The position numbers and the translations under genes are program-made. The notes beneath the pieces were generated by a model, which had not been told where the DNA came from, searched no databases, and worked only from the letters and a program-made list of their open reading frames with translations. 13,798 bases of DNA from Candidatus Helarchaeota ASGARD archaeon Hel_GB_B (lineage in GTDB: Archaea > Asgardarchaeota > Lokiarchaeia > Helarchaeales > HEL-GB-B), in assembly GCA_005191425.1 (NCBI GenBank), contig SUPR01000092.1, positions 1 to 13,798 on the forward strand, read 5' to 3'. Each line of letters starts with the position of its first letter. Within the stretch, counting starts at the first letter, position 1. This document shows positions 1 through 10,409 of the stretch, piece by piece.

Positions 1-20
1 TTTCTATGACTAACTTGACT

Positions 21-1435
21 GGCAATTTAACATGGAACGGAAATTCATGGCAAGCAATTAATATTGATGTATCTACACTACCAGAAGGTATTTATTATAT
101 AAATACAACATTTGGAGGCAGGTATTCTTTTGGAAATAATAGCCATGCATCACAACTTTTAGCAATCTTTACAGTCGATCATTATTTCAAATTAAATGGT
201 ATTTCTATAAGTTGTAATGGTGGCAAACTCCAAAAACTGAATATAACAATTGACTGTGTAAATAGTACATATAAAAAACTCGGAAATCTTAAAGGTTTGG
301 AAGCAAAATTTCATTATTTTAGAATCTATAATGAATCTGGATATAATACCTCTATATATGGCAATTTTTCTTTTGATAATACGACTGGCACATATAAACG
401 GGAAGCTATTAATATTTCTACTTCTAATGTTCCTCCAGATATTACTTTGTTTATATTAATTTTACTAATTATCTTAATTATGGTTCTATTATTTTTAACT
501 CGATTTTGTTCTTAATAAATCATACTTTAATTTCTGAAACAACCCCACAGGACTTCTATGAAGGAAATTATATTCAAATTATTAAACTCCGAAATATTAG
601 AATTAAGAGCACATATAATGGGCTAAGTAATTTAGGAAAAGGAGCAGCTCGAATTCATAATTATTCTATATTTTATAGTAATGGTACATTTACAGGAAAA
701 GCCGGTAAATTGAATTATGATGGATATTCATGGTACTCTGATATCTCTGCTTCGGATTTGCCTGAAGGCGAGTACTATATTAATGCATTTTTTAAAGATA
801 AATACAACGATTCTGGTATAACTTATATTTCAAATAATTTTACAGTAGACCATATTATTGATTGTTCAAATTTTAAAGTCATATATTCTGGTTATATGGA
901 TCAAATATTTAATTTATCATTTATTCCGAAAAGTACTTTTACTCCAAAAGATATTATTGATAATACTGAAGAAATTTATGCTAAATATAAAGTGATTGAC
1001 CTTAATACTTCATTGTCTATTAAAAGTGGTAATTTAACTTGGACTGGTAATCTATGGAACAAAATTATTGATGTCAGTAAATTACTGGAACGTGATTATA
1101 TCGTATTAATAAATTTCTCGGATTCATATGATTCGGTGATCTGTAATTCATCTGTTTTATCACCATATCATTATATTGAAATATTTGCCCCAATTTTTGA
1201 ATATAATTTCGCTTCAATGCAAATAAATATCTTGAATTTCGCTGCCAACTGTTCTTATCATGGTGTAATTAATAATTTAACCACTATACCAACTAATATA
1301 TCATTCAAAATTATTAATGATAAGACTACTCAAATTATCGCAAGTAATTTTGATTATATTTCATCTTATTGGCAAAAATCTAATATTAATCTAAATAGTA
1401 TACCTTTTTCTAATATTACCATTTACATTTATTTC
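21..1435 (+). repeat. Five diverged protein-level repeats with a period of ~105-115 aa (probably beta-sandwich/Ig-like)
   Basis: Core motif G-x-L/F-x-W/Y/F...W/Y...I-D/N-V/I-S-x-L-P-x-G-x-Y starts at 21 (GNLTWNGNSWQAINIDVSTLPEGIYY), 360 (GNFSFDNTTGTYKREAINISTSNVPP[G]YY), 704 (GKLNYDGYSWYSDISASDLPEGEYY), 1028 (GNLTWTGNLWNKIIDVSKLLERDY) and 1343 (SNFDYISSYWQKSNINLNSIP). A boundary motif recurs: FTVDHY / FLINHT / FTVDHI / SPYHY. Confidence 0.8.
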
Positions 1436-1519
1436 GAAGTAAATGAGTCGTTTGGTAGTGCAAGATTCTCTTTATTATTAAATAATGGCACAGAAAATAT
1501 TTTTATATCTAAAAATGAT

Positions 1520-1846
1520 ATATCTATTATTATAAAAATATTAAATTCACCAAAATTAATGGAAATTTTATTAATTGAAAATCTGGTACCAATTGATCGC
1601 TTTAATTTAATAAACTCCACTGGAAATATCTATCAAATTGATATAAATGACAATAGTATCATTTTTAATGCTAATATTTCCATTAAATATTCTCAAAATG
1701 AAATTGACTTAAAAGGACTAGATGAATGGCTATTAACAATATATGCATGTGATAACGGCGTTTGAACTGAAATCAATGATGAATACCTCGATACAGAAAA
1801 TAATATTGTAACCGTAACTGTTAATCATTTCTCATATTTCGTAATT
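1520..1846 (+). other. Membrane-proximal beta-rich module ending in VNHFSYFVI (ZU5/GAIN/Nup98-like HF-S motif at 1826-1834)
   Basis: In-frame translation through the TGA gives LTIYACDNGV*TEINDEYLDTENNIVTVTVNHFSYFVI, resembling the 'W...D...n.v...v.HFS.f' ending of ZU5-like modules in prokaryotic surface proteins. Confidence 0.55.
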
Positions 1847-1867
1847 ATGCAAGGTAAATTTGGACTT

Positions 1868-2008
1868 GATTCTGATAATGACGGATTGACTGATTATTTA
1901 GAACATTATAAATATAATACCAACCCACTAATTTGGGATACAGACGGAGATGGCTTTTCCGATGGAGCGGAAATATCAAGTGGAACAGACCCATTGAACC
2001 CAAATAGC
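1868..2008 (+). repeat. Two DxDxDG calcium-binding (bacterial thrombospondin type-3-like) repeats
   Basis: DSDNDGLTDYLE...TNP and DTDGDGFSDGAE...GTDPLNPNS. Confidence 0.85.
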
Positions 2009-2032
2009 TATCCACGAGCTCATTCACAAGCA

Positions 2033-2119
2033 ATACCCGGATTTGAATTACACTACATCTTATTGATCATATTGCTATCATTAGGTTTTTCTATATACAA
2101 AATAAAAAAAGTAAATAAA
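2033..2119 (+). other. C-terminal archaeal sorting signal (PGF-CTERM / Loki-CTERM type)
   Basis: IPGF, then a hydrophobic helix (ELHYILLIILLSLGFSIY), then a basic cluster (KIKKVNK): the tripartite motif/TM/basic signal typical of archaeosortase-type targets. Confidence 0.8.
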
Positions 2120-2572
2120 TACAAACCTGATATTTTTAAAAAGTTGCTTTATTTAACTTAATATTTTAAATTATTTTAATTGCATTTTAAATTATATTCA
2201 ATAAAAATTTACAAGGTTATCAATTATTCACCAATTTTAATAGAGATATTTCGGGCATTTATAAATTATTATATTTATTTAATAACTCTTCCACACTTAT
2301 TTATTATAGCATATTTCATTGCTAATAATTTTACAACAATATTAATTGAGTTTTTTAGTGATTTAATATTCAATTCTCTTTACTAAATTTAATTTAAAAA
2401 AAGAAGACCTTATCTAAAAAAAAAGCAATTTAATAATAAATCAAATTTTTTTTTAATTTTGAGGATAATATTTTTATTAATAAAGAATTTTTAAGGTTGG
2501 AACTTCATTACATCAATTTTAAATAGTTAAATTTGGAATTGTACTCATAATTTAATGGTTAAGGAATTAAAG

Positions 2573-3037
2573 ATGGTTTTATTTTATACAAAAAATAAAA
2601 GTGTACATATATATGAGGATAAGAAAAATAAAATTTTAACAGCGAAGGCATCAATGGAGGATTTCTTCTTTAAAGGAGAAGTAGAATTAGATGTAAAAAT
2701 TTCAGGTATGGAGATTCTAAGAATTAGCGGAAAAATTGAGCGGTCAATTTCAAAAAGTTGTGATATTTTTCTAAAAAAATTGGAAGATATAATTGGAATT
2801 AGAATTAGTAGCGGACTTACAAAAAAAATAATGAAATTAGCAAATGGTATTGAGGGTTGTAATTATTTAGCAAGTTTAGTACTTGAATGTTGTGAAGGTT
2901 GTATTTTAGCTTTAACTGTTAAGCCATTAGAAAGAGCAGTACCAGAAATTAAAAAAATGAAAAATCTTACACCAAAAATGCTTGTTAATTTTATGCCGAA
3001 TATGAAAAATAGTTGTTTAGCATTTAAAGTTGATTAA
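2573..3037 (+). CDS. DUF2889-like Cys-rich protein, paralog A (alternative start ATG 2555)
   Basis: Pattern F-x-K-x-K-S-V...MED...beta strands...SC...IG(I)RI.SG.TK.I...GC..L..L..ECC...NSC.AF fits DUF2889-type proteins as recalled. It aligns by eye with the next gene. Confidence 0.65.
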   Translation: MVLFYTKNKSVHIYEDKKNKILTAKASMEDFFFKGEVELDVKISGMEILRISGKIERSISKSCDIFLKKLEDIIGIRISSGLTKKIMKLANGIEGCNYLASLVLECCEGCILALTVKPLERAVPEIKKMKNLTPKMLVNFMPNMKNSCLAFKVD

Positions 3038-3038
3038 A

Positions 3039-3524
3039 ATGGTTGAAAATTTGGATACTTTAAGTTTTAATAGAAACAAATTCGTTGGATTTGAAAAAAA
3101 AGATGACAATACTTATTTAATATTTGGTACTTTAGAAGATAATTTATATGCTCATGAAATAGAATTTGAAGTAAATATTTCTGAAATGATAATTACTAAA
3201 ATCAATGGAGTTATGCGGCGATATACTACACCGTTGTGTCCACCTGCCGTTGAATTGTTAAAAAAAGCTGAAGGATTAAAAATAGAACAAGGAGTTACCA
3301 GTAAAATAAAAAGAGAAATATCGCGACCAGGGTGCCGTCATTTTGGGAATTTGCTAAATGAATGTATTAATTCAATAGTGCCTGCAATTCTTACTTCAGA
3401 ATGGCGAGAAATGAAGGATAATAATATAGAATTAAGTAGAGAAGAATTTATTAAGAAAGTTATGCAAAAATATCCACAAATTAAAAATTTTTGCTCAATA
3501 TTAACAGGTTCTCCTATAAATTAA
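3039..3524 (+). CDS. DUF2889-like Cys-rich protein, paralog B
   Basis: FNRNK.V...LED..Y..EIE.EV......I....G.M.RY..PLC....GL.I..G....I.......GCRH..NLL.EC...NFC. ATG 3039 lies 1 nt after the upstream TAA; the track's TTG 3030 overlaps the previous gene. Confidence 0.75.
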   Translation: MVENLDTLSFNRNKFVGFEKKDDNTYLIFGTLEDNLYAHEIEFEVNISEMIITKINGVMRRYTTPLCPPAVELLKKAEGLKIEQGVTSKIKREISRPGCRHFGNLLNECINSIVPAILTSEWREMKDNNIELSREEFIKKVMQKYPQIKNFCSILTGSPIN

Positions 3525-3541
3525 TCAGAGATCGAATAATT

Positions 3542-4177
3542 ATGTTAATAGACTTACACATCCATACTTATCCAAAATCCAAATGTAGTAATATGTCTCC
3601 AGAAGAATGTATTGAAAAAGCAATAGAAATCGGGTTGGATGGGCTTGTATTTACTGAACATAATATTTGTTGGCAAAAATCAGAATTAGATTCACTTAAT
3701 AAAAAATATGATATTCTCATATTGGGTGGCATTGAAATTACTACAATTGAGGGAGATATTCTTGTTTATAATCATTTTTTTGATCCTATTACTAAATTAC
3801 CGAAAACTCAAGAAATTAGGGATATATTAGGCAATTCAAAAGATTCATTCATGGCAATAGCCCATCCATTTCGTGAGTTTCTTGTGGTTGGAATTGGTGA
3901 TTTAGGACTGGACATAAATGAAATAATGAACAGGCCTATTTTTAATATTTTAGATGGTATTGAAATTTTCAATGGTCTTGTATCGCGAAAAGCTAATAGA
4001 TTAGCCAAAACAATTTGTAATAAGAAAAATTTAATTTGTATAGGTGGCTCTGATGCTCATGAACTTTTTCAAATTGGTAAATATGTTGTAGAATTTGAAA
4101 ATGAAATTAAAAATGAAAAAGATCTTGTAAATGAATTATTTAAAAGAAATTTTCAAATAAAACATTTTAAAAAATAA
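3542..4177 (+). CDS. PHP-domain metal-dependent phosphoesterase-like protein
   Basis: PHP motifs DLHIHT, GLDGLVFTEH, GIEIT, AHP, IEIFN and GGSDAH. The start is moved to ATG 3542 (MLIDLH) because the track's TTG 3491 lies inside the upstream gene. Confidence 0.9.
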   Translation: MLIDLHIHTYPKSKCSNMSPEECIEKAIEIGLDGLVFTEHNICWQKSELDSLNKKYDILILGGIEITTIEGDILVYNHFFDPITKLPKTQEIRDILGNSKDSFMAIAHPFREFLVVGIGDLGLDINEIMNRPIFNILDGIEIFNGLVSRKANRLAKTICNKKNLICIGGSDAHELFQIGKYVVEFENEIKNEKDLVNELFKRNFQIKHFKK

Positions 4178-4182
4178 GGTGA
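4176..4182 (+). promoter_or_regulatory. Shine-Dalgarno site (AAGGTGA) overlapping the PHP stop codon; translational coupling to DUF169
   Basis: Complementary to the archaeal anti-SD and 5 nt before ATG 4188. Similar GGT(G) motifs lie upstream of the lipase (5911-5915, -), ECH (6043-6046), the flavoenzyme (6873-6877) and gdhA (11829-11833, -). Confidence 0.65.
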
Positions 4183-4187
4183 ATATA

Positions 4188-4991
4188 ATGGGAAAATGGA
4201 ATGAATTAACAAAAAAACTCGAAAGATTATTACGATTAAAAACATTTCCTATTGCTTTTAAATTATTAGAAAATGAAGAAGAATTATATAATAATAAATG
4301 GGTTAGAATTCCTAATAAAAAAGAACCAGCTACTTTATGTCAACTTATTACTAGAGTTAGGACATTTGATTGGACTGTTGGCGCAACTGCTGAAAATTTA
4401 GCTACACCTGTATGTCCTTATATGCTTGGTATGCTAAATGAAACTCCTGAAATGATAAAAAATGGGACTTATCGAACTATTAAATGGTTTAAGGATATCA
4501 AGGAATCCTTAAGATATGAATCAATTTTTCCAAAAATTGAGCTTGGAAAATATAAAGCAGTAATGCTAGCACCTCTTTTATATGATCCATTTGATCCAGA
4601 TATCGTCTTACTCTATGGGAATCCCGCACAAATGATTGTAATTATAAATGCATTGCAGTTTTTCAAGTATGAACGCTTTACTTTTTATTGTGTGGGTGAA
4701 AGCTCATGTGTCGATTATATAGCTCAATGTTATAATACAAAAAAGCCCTCTTTAACAATTCCTTGTTATGGTGAAAGGAGATATGGACATGCCCAAGATG
4801 ATGAATTAGTAATTGCTCTCCCAGCAGATATGATAGAAGACCCACTAATTAAGGGACTAGAGGAATTATATAAACGAGGGATACGATATCCTATACCATA
4901 TTATGGGGCCGAAGTAGACCCAAGACCTGGGCTTTTTGATGCATATGCTGGAAGTAGGAAATATAGAAAACAAAAAGTTAAATATAAATAA
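4188..4991 (+). CDS. DUF169 (COG2043) family protein
   Basis: LRLKTFPIAFK, TLCQ, PDIVLLYGNPAQM, GESSC and PCYGERRYGHAQDDELV are characteristic DUF169 blocks. SD aaggtga at 4176-4182 favours ATG 4188. Confidence 0.9.
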   Translation: MGKWNELTKKLERLLRLKTFPIAFKLLENEEELYNNKWVRIPNKKEPATLCQLITRVRTFDWTVGATAENLATPVCPYMLGMLNETPEMIKNGTYRTIKWFKDIKESLRYESIFPKIELGKYKAVMLAPLLYDPFDPDIVLLYGNPAQMIVIINALQFFKYERFTFYCVGESSCVDYIAQCYNTKKPSLTIPCYGERRYGHAQDDELVIALPADMIEDPLIKGLEELYKRGIRYPIPYYGAEVDPRPGLFDAYAGSRKYRKQKVKYK

Positions 4992-5068: not shown

Positions 5069-5902
5069 TTAAGTATGTTTGTTAAGCCAATCTAATAAAT
5101 CTTGGAGCACTATTTCTCTTTTTTCTTTAAGTTCGTTGTACACTTCGTGTCTTAAACCATCATATTTTTTAAAGGTTTTATCTTCCATTGTCATTAGTTC
5201 CTCAAGTTTGTCTGCACCTAGTATTAAGGTATCTTCAGATCCAAACTGAACTAAAGTTGGAATTTTAATATTTGGAGTTAATTTATTAGCTATTTTATTA
5301 CCCCTAAACATTTCAGCACCTAACCGAATAGTAATTTCTTTAAGGAGTAAGGGGTCTTCATCATAATTTTTTATAACTTCAGGGTCATGAGATACATCTT
5401 CACCTTTAATTTTTGTCGAGATTTTACCTTTTGGAGTAAGTATAGACATTAATTTTGCAAATGCTATTAATAATGCATTTGTAGAACCACCAATTTTTGT
5501 TCCAGCACCAGATAAAATTAATCCTTTGAAATTGTCTTGGACCGAACTTATATATGCTTTTGAAATAATAGAACCTAATGAATGTCCAAGTAGAAATAAT
5601 GATTTATCTCCTATTTTTTCTTTTATCAATTCAGTGAATTTTTCTTGGTCTTTAATAAAGTCTTCAAATTTATTAACATATGCCCTAATACCTTTAGATT
5701 TACCATGCCCTCGTAAATCGCTGGCATAGATTAAATATCCATTTGGAACAAGCTTATTTACTACATTAATATATCTAGTAGAATATTCACCCAATCCATG
5801 AACAATCTGAATTACAGCTTTAACATCACCATCTGGTCTCCAAATTTGATAATACAGGTCTAAATCATCATAACTCTTAAAAAAATTATCCTCGTGTTTC
5901 AT
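5069..5902 (-). CDS. Alpha/beta hydrolase, lysophospholipase / monoacylglycerol lipase (PldB / Hydrolase_4) family
   Basis: Oxyanion motif HGLGEYS, D.RGHG.S, nucleophile elbow GHSLG, acid in GSED and His in LRHE; 277 aa; SD aaggt. Confidence 0.92.
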   Translation of the reverse strand: MKHEDNFFKSYDDLDLYYQIWRPDGDVKAVIQIVHGLGEYSTRYINVVNKLVPNGYLIYASDLRGHGKSKGIRAYVNKFEDFIKDQEKFTELIKEKIGDKSLFLLGHSLGSIISKAYISSVQDNFKGLILSGAGTKIGGSTNALLIAFAKLMSILTPKGKISTKIKGEDVSHDPEVIKNYDEDPLLLKEITIRLGAEMFRGNKIANKLTPNIKIPTLVQFGSEDTLILGADKLEELMTMEDKTFKKYDGLRHEVYNELKEKREIVLQDLLDWLNKHT

Positions 5903-6056
5903 CTTTAATTACCTTATTATAAAATTTATTATATTATTTCTAAAATTAAATTAATTTAATCATTTAAATTATTATTGGAAATATGTAATTATAAAAAAAT
6001 CTAAAAATTAAAAATAAAATAATATGATAATTGAAATATTTTAGGTCGATATAAAA

Positions 6057-6872
6057 TTGAGTGATATAGTTTTAATAGAGAAAAATGAAGAAAAACCTAT
6101 TACAACGATTAAACTTAACCGATTAAACAAAAAAAATGCGTTAAATTATGAATTATTTATTGGGCTTGATAATGCATTAGACGAGGTAGAGAAGGATGAT
6201 TCTAGGGTTGTAATTATAACTGGAGGTAAAGACACTTTTAGTGCAGGTATAGATTTAAAAATGCTGACTGGACAAGATGTTGAATCCGATTTTAGAGCTC
6301 CATTAAGACCTACCAATTTTAGATATTGGTTAAATACTTGGTTACAACCGATTTTTACAAAAATTGAGATGATGGAAAAACCTGTTATAGCTAAAATTAA
6401 TGGGTATTGTTATGGCTCAGGTTTTGAATTGGCTTGTGCATGTGATTTTAGATTTGCAATAGAAACTGCAACATTTACTATGCCCGAATCAAAAGTAGGC
6501 ATAATAACCGATGTAGGTGGTACCATAAGATTAGTAAGATTAGTCGGTTTAACCAATGCCAAGGATATAATACTTACTGGCAGGACTTTTGACGGAAAAG
6601 AAGCCTATAGACTTGGAATATTAAATAATGTTGCTAAATCTATTGAAGAATTGGACCAAATGATATCCGATTTCGCTGATGAACTTATTGATAGCGCACC
6701 TTTGGCTGTTGGTTTTGGAAAAAGACTAATTAATGCTTGCTATGGAAAAGATACTGCATTTGGAATGGAATTAGAAGGTTTTGTTAATTCACAGTTATTG
6801 CAAACTAAAGATTTTTTTACTGGAGCCTTTGCAAGATTACAAAAGAAAAAACCAAAATGGAAAGGAAAATAA
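6057..6872 (+). CDS. Enoyl-CoA hydratase/isomerase (crotonase) family protein
   Basis: LNRLNKKNAL, FSAGIDL, IAKINGYCYGSGFELACACD and MPESKVG with both crotonase glutamates present; TTG start with upstream aggt. Confidence 0.92.
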   Translation: MSDIVLIEKNEEKPITTIKLNRLNKKNALNYELFIGLDNALDEVEKDDSRVVIITGGKDTFSAGIDLKMLTGQDVESDFRAPLRPTNFRYWLNTWLQPIFTKIEMMEKPVIAKINGYCYGSGFELACACDFRFAIETATFTMPESKVGIITDVGGTIRLVRLVGLTNAKDIILTGRTFDGKEAYRLGILNNVAKSIEELDQMISDFADELIDSAPLAVGFGKRLINACYGKDTAFGMELEGFVNSQLLQTKDFFTGAFARLQKKKPKWKGK

Positions 6873-6883
6873 AGTGATGTTTT

Positions 6884-8806
6884 ATGAAATTGTTAGAACC
6901 AATTAAAGTTAAAGATATTGAGATAAGAAATAGAGTTGCCATGCCACCTATGGATACCCATCTTGGAAATACTGATGGTAGTGTTTCAGATAAAACTATT
7001 AAGTATTATAGGTTAAGAGCAAAAGGTGGAATTGGAATAATTTATGTTGAAGGTACAGCAATTCATCAGTTAGCAAAAGCTACTATGAAAATGATGAAAA
7101 TTGATTCAGATGATAAGATCGAAGGCTTTTCAAAACTTGCAAAAGTTATAAAAGATAATGGCGCTATTGCAATGATACAATTTATGCATGCTGGTTCTCA
7201 AACTTCTCAGTTATTTTTAGGCGATAGACCAGTTTCTCCTTCTGGAGTAAAGAATTCATTCTTACCTATGGAAAATCCTAGAGCATTAACTAAAGAAGAG
7301 ATAAAACAAATTATAAGTTATTATGGTGATGCTGCTATAAGAGCGGAAAAAGCTGGGTTTAATGGTATTGAAATTCACGCAGCTCATGGATATTTAATAA
7401 ATCAATTCTTATCTCCCAGACACAATAAAAGAACTGATGAATACGGTGGAAGTTTAGAAAATAGAATGCGATTTCTCATTGAAGTTTATGACGAAATTAA
7501 ATCTCGAATTAGTAATAATATGATAATTGGTATGAGAATTAACGGATCTGATTATGTAGAAGGTGGGTTTGATATTGAAGAAGCAAAAATAGTCGCCAAA
7601 ACAATGGAAAATAAGGGAATAGATATAATTAATGTATCTGCTTCCACTGATGAAACTCCTAATCATCTAATGATCCCATATATGACTTCTCCAAGGGGGG
7701 TACATACTAATTTATCAGCCGAAATTAAAAAAGTAATAAAAAAAGTACCTGTCATTGGTGTAGGACGAATTAATGACCCACAACTTGCTGAACAAATACT
7801 CCAAGAAAATAAAGCAGATATCGTTGCTTTAGGTCGTCAAAGTATCTGTGATCCTTATTTTGTAAAAAAGGTAAAGGAAAAAAGAGAGAAAGATATATTG
7901 AAATGTATTGCTTGTAATAATTGTATAAATTCTCTGGCACTGCAAAAAGAAATAAATTGTTCAATAAATCCAAATATCTTAGAATCAGATGAGGAAATTG
8001 AAAAAACTAAAAATCCAAAAAAGGTTTTAATAGTAGGTGCAGGGCCTGCTGGACTAACTGCAGCCAAATATGCTAAATTAAAAGGGCATGAAGTTGTAAT
8101 CATAGATAAGAATAATAAAATAGGTGGTACATTAAATCTAGCCAATAAAGCACCCTATAAAAATGAAATTAACAATATAATGAATTATTATAACTATAAA
8201 ATTAAAGATTTAAACATAGACTTGAGGTTAAATACTGTCCTTACTCCAAAAATTGTCGATGATATTCAACCAGATATTCTAATAATAGCGACAGGTAGTA
8301 AACCATTGATTCCAAAAATTAATGGATTAGAATCAATTGATTATAAAATATTTTCAGATGTCCTTGAAGATAAAGTTAAAGTAGGTAATAATGTGGTCGT
8401 AATTGGTGGCGGAATGGTCGGAATTGAATTATCTGAATTTCTAGTTTCAAAAAATAAAAAAGTGACAATTATTGAAAAAATGAATAAATTAGGTGCTAAT
8501 ATTGACCAAATGGTTAGTTTTGTTATAATGTACTATTTGCAACAAAATAAAAACATTGAAAAATTAATCAATGCTAATATTGTAAAGATTGATAAAAACA
8601 AAATCGTGGTAGAAATTAAAGGTAAATCTATAGATATTTCATATGATGATGTCGTTATATCTACTGGCATGGGGCCAAATTTACCAGACCTTACTGAAAT
8701 TAAGTCTAAAATTTCAGATATTAAGAAAATAGGTGATTGCAAAAAACCCAAAAAAATTGTTGATGCAGTAAGTGGCGCTTATAAATTAATAATGAAAATG
8801 TCTTAG
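6884..8806 (+). CDS. NADH:flavin oxidoreductase, OYE-like FMN domain + 4Fe-4S + FAD/NAD(P) domain (FadH / BaiCD / BaiH-like)
   Basis: RNRVAMPPM, EIHAAHGYLINQFLSP..NKRTDEYGGSLENR, Fe-S motif CIACNNC-x11-C, GAGPAG and GGGMVG Rossmann motifs, GDC near the C-terminus; 640 aa; 11 nt after the ECH stop. Confidence 0.92.
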   Translation: MKLLEPIKVKDIEIRNRVAMPPMDTHLGNTDGSVSDKTIKYYRLRAKGGIGIIYVEGTAIHQLAKATMKMMKIDSDDKIEGFSKLAKVIKDNGAIAMIQFMHAGSQTSQLFLGDRPVSPSGVKNSFLPMENPRALTKEEIKQIISYYGDAAIRAEKAGFNGIEIHAAHGYLINQFLSPRHNKRTDEYGGSLENRMRFLIEVYDEIKSRISNNMIIGMRINGSDYVEGGFDIEEAKIVAKTMENKGIDIINVSASTDETPNHLMIPYMTSPRGVHTNLSAEIKKVIKKVPVIGVGRINDPQLAEQILQENKADIVALGRQSICDPYFVKKVKEKREKDILKCIACNNCINSLALQKEINCSINPNILESDEEIEKTKNPKKVLIVGAGPAGLTAAKYAKLKGHEVVIIDKNNKIGGTLNLANKAPYKNEINNIMNYYNYKIKDLNIDLRLNTVLTPKIVDDIQPDILIIATGSKPLIPKINGLESIDYKIFSDVLEDKVKVGNNVVVIGGGMVGIELSEFLVSKNKKVTIIEKMNKLGANIDQMVSFVIMYYLQQNKNIEKLINANIVKIDKNKIVVEIKGKSIDISYDDVVISTGMGPNLPDLTEIKSKISDIKKIGDCKKPKKIVDAVSGAYKLIMKMS

Positions 8807-9023: not shown

Positions 9024-10409
9024 ATGAAAGTATTATTGATATATCCTCCATTCCAACTAGGAGCTGGCATGGGTAAAGTAATGTGTAGTCCTCCACTTTC
9101 ATTACTTTCATTAGCAGGTGCTGCAGAAGACCATGATGTTGAAGTTTTAGACTTAAATACAGATTATTCATATGGAATTGATAAATTAGAACGTAGAATA
9201 CAAAAATATGATATGATTGGTTTAACTTGTATGTCTAATATGTATAAGATGGCCATTAATATTTGTAAACTGGCTAAACAGAACGATGTTCAAACGATTC
9301 TTGGAGGTTTTCATCCAACATTAGACCCTCATATTATTGAAGATTATAATTATTTTGATTATATTGTAAAAGGAGAAGGTGAATTCACTTTTAAAGAATT
9401 ATTAGATGGAAAACCTAAAAAAGAAATTCTTGGACTATCTTATAGAGATAATGGTAAAGTACACCACAATCCTGAACGTCCCTTCTTACAGAATTTAGAT
9501 GATTTGCCTTATCCAAAAAAAGATCTTCTGGATTACTCATCATATCATTATTTATGGGTTCCAGCAGATGTAGTTGAAGGATCTAGAGGCTGTCCGTTCA
9601 GTTGTAATTTTTGTTGCGTAACTAAATTTTACAATAGATTATATCGAGCAAAATCGCCTATGCGTGTATTAAGAGAATTATATCAGGTACCGCAGTCGCA
9701 AGATTTAGTTTTTTTTGTTGACGATAATTTTACATTAAATTATAAACGAGTATTAAAAATTTGTTCATTAATCCAAAAATCTCATCTTAATTCTAAGTTG
9801 CGTTTTGTCTGTCAAACCCGTGTAGACGATATCGCAGCTCATCCAGACATGGTTAGAGAAATGAAAAAAGCAGGTTTTATTTGTTTTTTTATGGGATTTG
9901 AAAGTTTTAAACAAAGTAGTTTAAATACAATGCAAAAAAGCTATAGTGTAGATAAAATCAAGAGCGCTATCAACATATGTAAAAAAAACAATATAATGGT
10001 ATTCGGGTCTTTTATAATTGGAAATATTGGCGAGACCTATGATGATGTTCTCTTTAATATAAAAATGATGAGCAAATTAGGTCTTGATTTTATGATGACA
10101 AATCCGCTAACCGCTTTTCCAAACACACCGCTTTTTTATGAAGCCAGAGAACACGGATGGATTGATAAAGATTTCAAATGGGAAGAATGGAATTTTGGTC
10201 CAATGATGAAAACACCTGATTTATCTATTGATGATATTAAAGAATTATTAGATTTAAGCTATGAATCATTTTACAAGAATCCAAAATGGCTGCTACTCGA
10301 TAAAATAAAAGGGATCAAAAATTTATTTTCACCTGATGCTGGATGGTTATTTAAACAACTCGGTAGTTTTTTCTCAAATGGTATTAGTAAATTCATTATG
10401 AAAATTTAA
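9024..10409 (+). CDS. B12-binding domain radical SAM protein (class B methyltransferase / BchE-like superfamily)
   Basis: N-terminal Rossmann-type cobalamin domain (VLLIYPP, PPLSL, LGGFHPT, GEGE), SRGCPFSCNFC (CxxxCxxC), DDNF, TRVD, GFES and FIIG. Confidence 0.92.
   Translation: MKVLLIYPPFQLGAGMGKVMCSPPLSLLSLAGAAEDHDVEVLDLNTDYSYGIDKLERRIQKYDMIGLTCMSNMYKMAINICKLAKQNDVQTILGGFHPTLDPHIIEDYNYFDYIVKGEGEFTFKELLDGKPKKEILGLSYRDNGKVHHNPERPFLQNLDDLPYPKKDLLDYSSYHYLWVPADVVEGSRGCPFSCNFCCVTKFYNRLYRAKSPMRVLRELYQVPQSQDLVFFVDDNFTLNYKRVLKICSLIQKSHLNSKLRFVCQTRVDDIAAHPDMVREMKKAGFICFFMGFESFKQSSLNTMQKSYSVDKIKSAINICKKNNIMVFGSFIIGNIGETYDDVLFNIKMMSKLGLDFMMTNPLTAFPNTPLFYEAREHGWIDKDFKWEEWNFGPMMKTPDLSIDDIKELLDLSYESFYKNPKWLLLDKIKGIKNLFSPDAGWLFKQLGSFFSNGISKFIMKI

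Follow-up and report, generated by a model that had tools for sequence, protein, structure and literature searches.

The locus described here, a four-gene cassette on a contig of the Helarchaeales archaeon Candidatus Helarchaeota Hel_GB_B, can be compared with three described systems, namely the phosphoesterases of the TrpH/YciV/Cv1693 type (COG0613), the IscU/SufU/NifU-N proteins and the dephospho-CoA kinase CoaE (PF01121) of the canonical coenzyme A (CoA) pathway. Characterised Cv1693-type enzymes act on the 3'-phosphates of adenosine 3',5'-bisphosphate, a nucleotide moiety that is also part of CoA. Besides a PHP phosphoesterase, the cassette encodes two DUF2889 proteins (A and B) and a DUF169 (COG2043) protein, which belong to widespread families without assigned function. 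Indeed, full-text literature searches returned no functional study of DUF169 or DUF2889 and no paper describing the four genes as a module. The stretch analysed, referred to as the window, is the complete 13.8-kb contig SUPR01000092.1 (13,798 nucleotides), has a GC content of ~ 28-29% and belongs to a metagenome-assembled genome of 3.5 Mb, whose completeness is 93.7%.

Comparison of this locus across genomes firmly establishes that the four genes form one conserved, ancient and horizontally shared protein module, that many lineages couple DUF2889-A/B physically to PHP and that the module has a recurrent evolutionary tie to dephospho-CoA kinase. The cassette is a clear case of a gene cluster shared between domains in an Asgard archaeon, and the Helarchaeales form is its archaeal, CoaE-free version. 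Carriers are anaerobes running their carbon metabolism on CoA thioesters, that is sulfate reducers, syntrophs, Dehalococcoidia and hydrocarbon-degrading lineages including Helarchaeales. An obligate module with PHP, repeatedly attached to the essential enzyme that completes CoA synthesis, leads to a concrete biochemical hypothesis, in which CoA, dephospho-CoA or 3',5'-ADP would be the ligands and iron-sulfur (Fe-S) or thiol chemistry the activity, and provides a first testable role for both DUF families.

A four-gene module conserved in archaea and bacteria

A four-gene cassette at positions 2573-4991 had been noted in an earlier reading of the DNA letters (the sequence-only reading) and this observation is confirmed. 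Re-reading the sequence gives the same values for the four co-oriented genes, with spacers of 1 nt between A and B, 17 nt between B and PHP and 10 nt between PHP and DUF169, and the AT-rich upstream stretch of ~ 410 bp that had been described is recovered with a GC content well below the ~ 29% of the window (Table 1). The stop codon of PHP is directly abutted by a GGTGA motif, upstream of DUF169 (TAAGGTGA).

The Asgard search covered 41 genomes, namely 40 related genomes and the window's own. Of six other genomes searched from the order of the window's archaeon, five have a DUF169 orthologue with 65-87% identity; these five belong to three families, and the gene order A-B-PHP-DUF169 is identical in all of their loci. 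Genomes of the other families of the class contain DUF169 paralogues only, at 31-38% identity. Both a DUF2889 protein and a DUF169 orthologue are present in 6 of the 41 genomes while the other 35 have neither, and DUF2889 is confined to the same six genomes as the DUF169 orthologue (0/34 genomes of other families). The genome of one locus (L047, identical with contig C223 of genome G002) is titled 'Candidatus Deferrimicrobium sp.', a bacterium, yet it is placed in the order of the window's archaeon; the DUF169 of its cassette is 69% identical to the window's and groups with Helarchaeota in the tree, and the label is probably wrong.

A wider search was performed with the DUF169 alignment as sole bait and one genome per GTDB species, and the best 80 loci of 452 confirmed relatives were retained. 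These 80 loci are distributed among Helarchaeota, a Halobacteriota bin, Chloroflexota/Dehalococcoidia, Desulfobacterota (including strain NaphS2, Syntrophaceae and Desulfatiglandales) and Bacillota (Peptococcaceae and Desulfotomaculum copahuensis), with DUF169 identities to the window's protein of 54-65% outside its own order. The close relatives in Desulfobacterota that the sequence-only reading had mentioned are indeed among them, at 54-62% identity for DUF169. Hidden Markov models built from the archaeal proteins place PHP and/or DUF2889 alongside DUF169 in 73 loci out of 80, the remainder being mostly contig ends, and an orthologue of A adjoins B in 66. Moreover, in five of five genomes where a DUF169-CoaE fusion protein stands alone the DUF2889 pair is encoded elsewhere, and in at least two of these the B copy sits in a frame of ~ 385 amino acids (aa), which is the length of the B-PHP fusion described below.

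The association was also counted in an even sample of 151 Desulfobacterota genomes, in which 27 contain strong orthologues of both B and DUF169, one contains B only and none contains DUF169 only. The thresholds (E ≤ 1e-33 for B and E ≤ 1e-98 for DUF169) were set after seeing the bimodal scores, and these genomes are related to each other and hence are not independent samples. Given that several genomes hold the two genes on different contigs, the association of B with DUF169 is independent of adjacency. Module-type DUF169 is in this way shown to be essentially restricted to genomes with a DUF2889 pair. Synteny, phyletic co-occurrence and fusions (A-B, B-PHP and DUF169-CoaE) all uphold the functional unit that the sequence-only reading had proposed. 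In the tree, the window's DUF169 lies inside the clade of module orthologues, but no direction of transfer between archaea and bacteria can be read from it, as the outgroup sits on a very long branch and support for the basal nodes is lacking. Complex prediction, in which the four chains were supplied as alignments and DUF169 served as partner, returned a score of 0.00 and gives no verdict on interfaces. The largest 'neighbour' cluster of the loci was discarded, being an artefact of antisense open reading frames in GC-rich genomes.

Kinase link, domain fusions and conserved residues

The strongest clue to the function of the module, which was absent from the sequence-only reading, is its fusion or adjacency to CoaE. 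The long DUF169 proteins of Desulfobacterota end in a complete C-terminal dephospho-CoA kinase domain (PF01121, E ~ 1e-55), and CoaE is fused to DUF169 in about 46 of the 80 loci. A separate adjacent coaE is observed in nine loci from different clades and in two positions, either between PHP and DUF169 (five Chloroflexota loci and the Halobacteriota locus) or just downstream of DUF169 (three other loci). Since both kinds of adjacency fall in clades other than that of the fused forms, the CoaE link arose or was retained on several occasions. Furthermore, in all five bacterial genomes tested, including those of NaphS2 and D. copahuensis, the CoaE of the module, present as a DUF169 domain or as an inserted or adjacent gene, is the sole CoaE match. 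CoaD and CoaBC are encoded elsewhere in the same five genomes, which rules out that the module replaces either of them and argues that it is not a canonical step of the CoA pathway.

Two contigs show particular arrangements of these genes. On one binned as Halobacteriota (L064:551-3480) five genes follow each other in the order A-B-PHP-CoaE-DUF169, with a CoaE of bacterial type placed as in Chloroflexota, which points either to transfer of the entire unit or to a misbinned contig. On another, unrelated contig of 70.6% GC (L134:5507-7507), an A-B tandem of 402 aa is encoded immediately upstream of a stand-alone coaE, neither PHP nor DUF169 intervening, and the kinase gene is in turn followed by one for a MoxR/CbbQ-like AAA ATPase.

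PHP shows the same tendency to fuse, this time with DUF2889-B. In many Desulfobacterota the two form one protein of ~ 390 aa with B at the N-terminus of PHP, and a profile search for longer relatives of B gave at least 551 clusters, 118 of the best 120 being DUF2889-PHP fusions with no other partner domain; unlike this profile search, a single-sequence search for longer relatives with the window's B protein returned nothing. Both parts of the window's PHP protein exceed their Pfam cut-offs, with 29.5 bits for PHP (cut-off 26.4) and 55.2 bits for PHP_C. Among 40 orthologues from at least five phyla, the set used for residue conservation throughout, the metal ligands D4, H6, H8, H40, E65, H108, D171 and H173 are invariant, and extra conserved cysteines are found at C15 and, in most orthologues, at C36. 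The nearest solved relatives are the TrpH-like 3e0f (profile E = 1e-11), 9etk, the RNase AM 7ug9 and the Cv1693 structure 2yb1. With these enzymes of the TrpH/YciV/Cv1693 type (3e0f/3o0f, 9etk, 7ug9 and 2yb1) the module protein shares the PHP fold, the PHP_C tail and all metal-binding His/Asp/Glu motifs, but it is much shorter (211 aa compared to ~ 290) and is always partnered with, and often fused to, DUF2889. None of the NCBIfam equivalogs was reached (nside_bi_sphtase, 16 bits against a cut-off of 400; RNaseRnm, 21.9 against 375; HisJ, 24.4 against 133), nor was the CehA/McbA domain model (53.9 bits against 80).

DUF2889-A and DUF2889-B both pass the gathering cut-off of the Pfam family, which is 25 bits (Table 1), and PF11136 is matched by 40/40 orthologues of B; as the margin over the cut-off is small, the two would represent a divergent subfamily. 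The two proteins are paralogous (hhalign probability 99.9%, 23% identity) with four aligned Cys positions, three of which are kept by B in at least 38 of the 40 orthologues and fewer by A. In A the conserved cysteines are C63, C96, C106 and C148, of which C148 alone is kept in 40/40, and in B the residues C67, C99, H101 and E108 are invariant and C109 nearly so. An exhaustive profile search revealed single-chain A-B tandems within the DUF2889 family, the whole of which is small, with 485 clusters at 50% identity among 1.84 billion. The A/B heterodimer that the sequence-only reading had suggested fits both the paralogy and these tandems. More distant DUF2889 pairs occur in other gene contexts as well, for example sharing an operon with genes for an MFS transporter and for a pyridoxal phosphate-dependent PALP enzyme (L137:5001-8214; 161 + 167 aa), which indicates that pairing is general in the family while the partner genes vary.

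The AlphaFold model of DUF2889-B (predicted local distance difference test, pLDDT, 91) consists of four antiparallel strands followed by helices, and its structural neighbours are found at Z-scores of 6.4-7.9. IscU/SufU/NifU-N entries account for five of the top 20 (Z 6.4-7.4), the others including LplA C-terminal domains, RnfG/NqrC and CO-dehydrogenase flavoprotein C-domains. Considering that Z is below 8 and that the LplA C-terminal domains and RnfG/NqrC score equally, the resemblance to IscU would reflect a common arrangement. Like IscU/SufU/NifU-N, DUF2889 has a small alpha+beta layout with an antiparallel sheet and then helices, and cysteines at the sheet end and at helix starts. However, its Cys/His pattern, C...GC(R)H...EC...C, is different, it has an extra C-terminal helical part and it always comes as an A/B pair of paralogues. 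No solved relative of DUF2889 was obtained by sequence or profile, nor with the B model by Foldseek against the PDB at E ≤ 0.001. DUF3870, a language-model neighbour of B (0.78), was not corroborated by fold searches.

The DUF169 assignment is secure, at 181.4 bits against a cut-off of 27 and over model positions 1-205 of 209. C51, C174 and C193 are family-wide cysteines kept even in distant Asgard paralogues, whereas C76, C168 and C181 belong to the module-type subfamily only. The uncharacterised Cys/metal proteins of the sequence-only reading do have candidate Cys/His ligands conserved among the orthologues. Seven Arg and two Lys are invariant in the alignment and would suit a phosphate-rich ligand. 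Weak Pfam matches across the 40 orthologues revealed no recurring second family, and no NCBIfam model names DUF169, DUF2889-A or DUF2889-B. The DUF169 model is alpha/beta (pLDDT 86), and an exhaustive structural aligner retrieved thiolase/ketosynthase folds only (best Z 4.5, root-mean-square deviation 5.3 over 148 residues), while searches by sequence and profile and by Foldseek against the PDB (nothing at E ≤ 0.001) yielded no solved relative. GGGtGRT, pyruvoyl HDC and AA_synth, which are language-model neighbours (0.86-0.90), were likewise not corroborated by fold searches.

Among ESM Atlas models the DUF169 domain is seen joined with CoaE, with 2x[4Fe-4S] ferredoxin domains in several large clusters (Actinomycetota, Bacillota and Myxococcota) and with URO-D-type domains (URO-D/MtaA-like; Methylomirabilota), and this choice of fusion partners points to a redox-active or cofactor-handling domain. 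The module-type protein shares with these other DUF169 subfamilies the fold (template modelling score 0.72-0.87 to Atlas models) and the three family-wide cysteines. In contrast, the class-level Asgard paralogues (31-38% identical) lack C76, C168 and C181, have no DUF2889 or PHP neighbours and are separated by a very long branch in the tree.

Candidate functions of the module

We tentatively favour a role of the module in the salvage, repair or turnover of CoA in strict anaerobes, and any specific chemistry is put forward with much less confidence than this general role. In such a system the A/B heterodimer would hold a Cys-ligated metal or Fe-S centre and DUF169 would be the catalytic or redox subunit, as suggested by its three family-wide cysteines and by the ferredoxin fusions of other subfamilies. 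Together they may form a redox unit acting on CoA, dephospho-CoA or a derivative. PHP would cleave a phosphoester of the same substrate, most plausibly by removing the 3'-phosphate from CoA, a CoA derivative or 3',5'-ADP, given that its nearest solved relatives are of the TrpH/Cv1693 type. CoA could then be restored by a dephospho-CoA kinase, which would be CoaE in bacteria and an unlinked DUF359-type kinase in the window's archaeon. A narrower version of this proposal appears unlikely, namely that anaerobes of sulfidic habitats repair or turn over CoA with this module as a so far undescribed system, which bacteria and Asgard archaea would have exchanged. In it PHP would strip the 3'-phosphate from damaged or modified CoA (e.g. 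a CoA persulfide, disulfide or S-adduct), the free thiol of the dephospho form would be regained by reduction through an Fe-S/thiol complex of DUF169 and DUF2889-A/B, and dephospho-CoA kinase would regenerate CoA.

Several observations weigh against a role in CoA metabolism. The fused forms make up one clade (SH-aLRT support 100), so that the DUF169-CoaE fusion is a single event, and no coaE is seen nearby in about 25 of the 80 loci, including all Helarchaeales and many Bacillota. Indeed, the cassettes of the window and of the five other Helarchaeales loci have no CoaE fused or adjacent, and the window's genome has no PF01121 match anywhere within its 93.7% completeness; its archaeal dephospho-CoA kinase, of the DUF359 type, is encoded on another contig (C132), unlinked to the cassette. 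In addition, coaE often stands in operons with unrelated housekeeping genes. As for the proteins themselves, PHP falls below every NCBIfam equivalog cut-off, so that CoA-type compounds are candidate substrates only, and we infer Fe-S binding only from the Cys patterns and from a weak fold resemblance.

The main rival to the CoA role is that the module matures an Fe-S or other metallocofactor or traffics sulfur, with A/B as an IscU-like scaffold or carrier, DUF169 as a further Cys carrier and an incidental or regulatory link to CoaE. We consider this rather unlikely. It draws on the strand-helix layout that the DUF2889-B model has in common with IscU/SufU/NifU-N and on the Cys positions aligned between A and B, as well as on gene neighbours in Chloroflexota and Bacillota, which include Mrp/NUBPL (7 loci), MinD-Fer4 (6), NifX-like Nitro_FeMo-Co (5 and 3), C_GCAxxG_C_C (4) and NifU_N (3). 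In addition, other DUF169 subfamilies are recorded in the literature near TauE, YedE and SepRS, genes for the handling of sulfur or selenium. However, neighbours of this type are absent from the Helarchaeales and Desulfobacterota loci, the comparison of DUF2889 with an IscU profile shows no homology (hhalign probability 0.2%, with a shallow IscU profile of 3 sequences), the structural match is of the common kind described above, and both the obligatory PHP partner, fused to B, and the recurrent CoaE link would be left unexplained. The Fe-S or sulfur-handling module envisaged by the sequence-only reading is hence a live rival, sustained by the IscU-like layout and by such neighbours in some phyla, and not the favoured reading.

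Less likely again, and distinctly improbable, is that the module provides subunits of an anaerobic acyl-CoA or lipid-catabolic enzyme working with the adjoining lipase-like hydrolase, crotonase and FadH/OYE-type flavoenzyme. These three genes stand beside the cassette in the window and in its genus-mate (G001), and among the 80 loci ECH occurs within 6 kb in 9, acyl-CoA dehydrogenase in 7, an NDP-forming acyl-CoA synthetase-like gene in 5 and an HMGL-like gene in 5; one DUF2889 tandem adjoins an AMP-binding ligase, and DUF169 has its weak thiolase-like fold resemblance (Z up to 4.5). Nevertheless, four of the other five Helarchaeales loci have different flanks, G001 alone sharing the hydrolase, crotonase, FadH/OYE and B12-radical-SAM genes, so the link to lipase, crotonase and ene-reductase genes drawn by the sequence-only reading does not extend beyond the genus. 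Conservation across phyla is seen for no acyl-CoA gene, and the ECH, acyl-CoA dehydrogenase and HMGL set, carried by some Desulfobacterota loci, comes from closely related genomes; moreover, these organisms have so many acyl-CoA enzymes that occasional adjacency is expected. Bins as small as ~ 1.0-1.8 Mb, for which no completeness is reported, also retain the module, and this would speak for a housekeeping role. Besides CoaE, none of the neighbours in the 80 loci is conserved across phyla, and a local link to lipid genes would hence be at most a weak, lineage-specific tendency.

A chance juxtaposition of four unrelated genes, against which the sequence-only reading had called for gene-neighbourhood analysis, is excluded by a cassette order kept across genomes of two domains and at least five phyla, by near-perfect co-occurrence even for unlinked genes and by three independent domain fusions.

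Other features of the window

Table 1. Positions of the cassette genes and of the other features mentioned, numbered from the first letter of the window
Feature	Positions	Strand	Remarks
Asn-rich protein	3-515	+	
Asn-rich protein	506-1765	+	419 aa
Asp-rich repeat protein	1847-2161	+	104 aa
AT-rich intergenic region	2162-2572	+	411 bp, 17-20% GC; presumed promoter and leader of the cassette
DUF2889-A	2573-3037	+	154 aa; stop TAA 3035-3037; Pfam PF11136, 28.3 bits
DUF2889-B	3039-3524	+	161 aa; ATG 3039, stop 3522-3524; Pfam PF11136, 27.2 bits
PHP phosphoesterase with PHP_C tail	3542-4177	+	211 aa; ATG 3542, stop 4175-4177; PF02811, PF13263
DUF169	4188-4991	+	267 aa; ATG 4188; Pfam PF02596, 181 bits
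Flanking block	5069-8806		alpha/beta hydrolase (Hydrolase_4) on minus strand, then crotonase, then 640-aa FadH/OYE-type Fe-S flavoenzyme
B12-binding radical SAM enzyme	9024-10409	+	BchE/HpnJ-like, under cut-offs

An Rfam scan of the window, upstream region included, matched no family, and the repeats seen in the AT-rich region are weak and no better than AT-rich noise, so that no regulatory element could be recognised there. The DNA of the cassette was located in DNA metagenome runs from hydrothermal-vent and marine sediments; the runs listed as holding it are DNA metagenomes only, with no RNA run among them.

Upstream of the cassette, the two Asn-rich proteins are dense in NxS/T sequons, and in one of them the C-terminus forms a membrane anchor. 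Both resemble N-glycosylated surface proteins of archaea, and the longer one has no NCBIfam match. The 104-aa protein contains thrombospondin-type-3-like, Asp-rich calcium-binding repeats, with weak NCBIfam matches to CglD/MtsD (E ~ 1e-5). Its C-terminus, with its 'PGF' motif, hydrophobic helix and tail rich in Lys, resembles an archaeosortase PGF-CTERM signal, which no family model confirmed.

On the downstream side, the 640-aa flavoenzyme is BaiCD-like with 522 bits, under the cut-off. In two Helarchaeales loci, and in three others that belong to a single bacterial clade (L053, L055 and L058), homologues of the B12-binding radical SAM enzyme are found, perhaps by chance, at up to 6 kb from the module.

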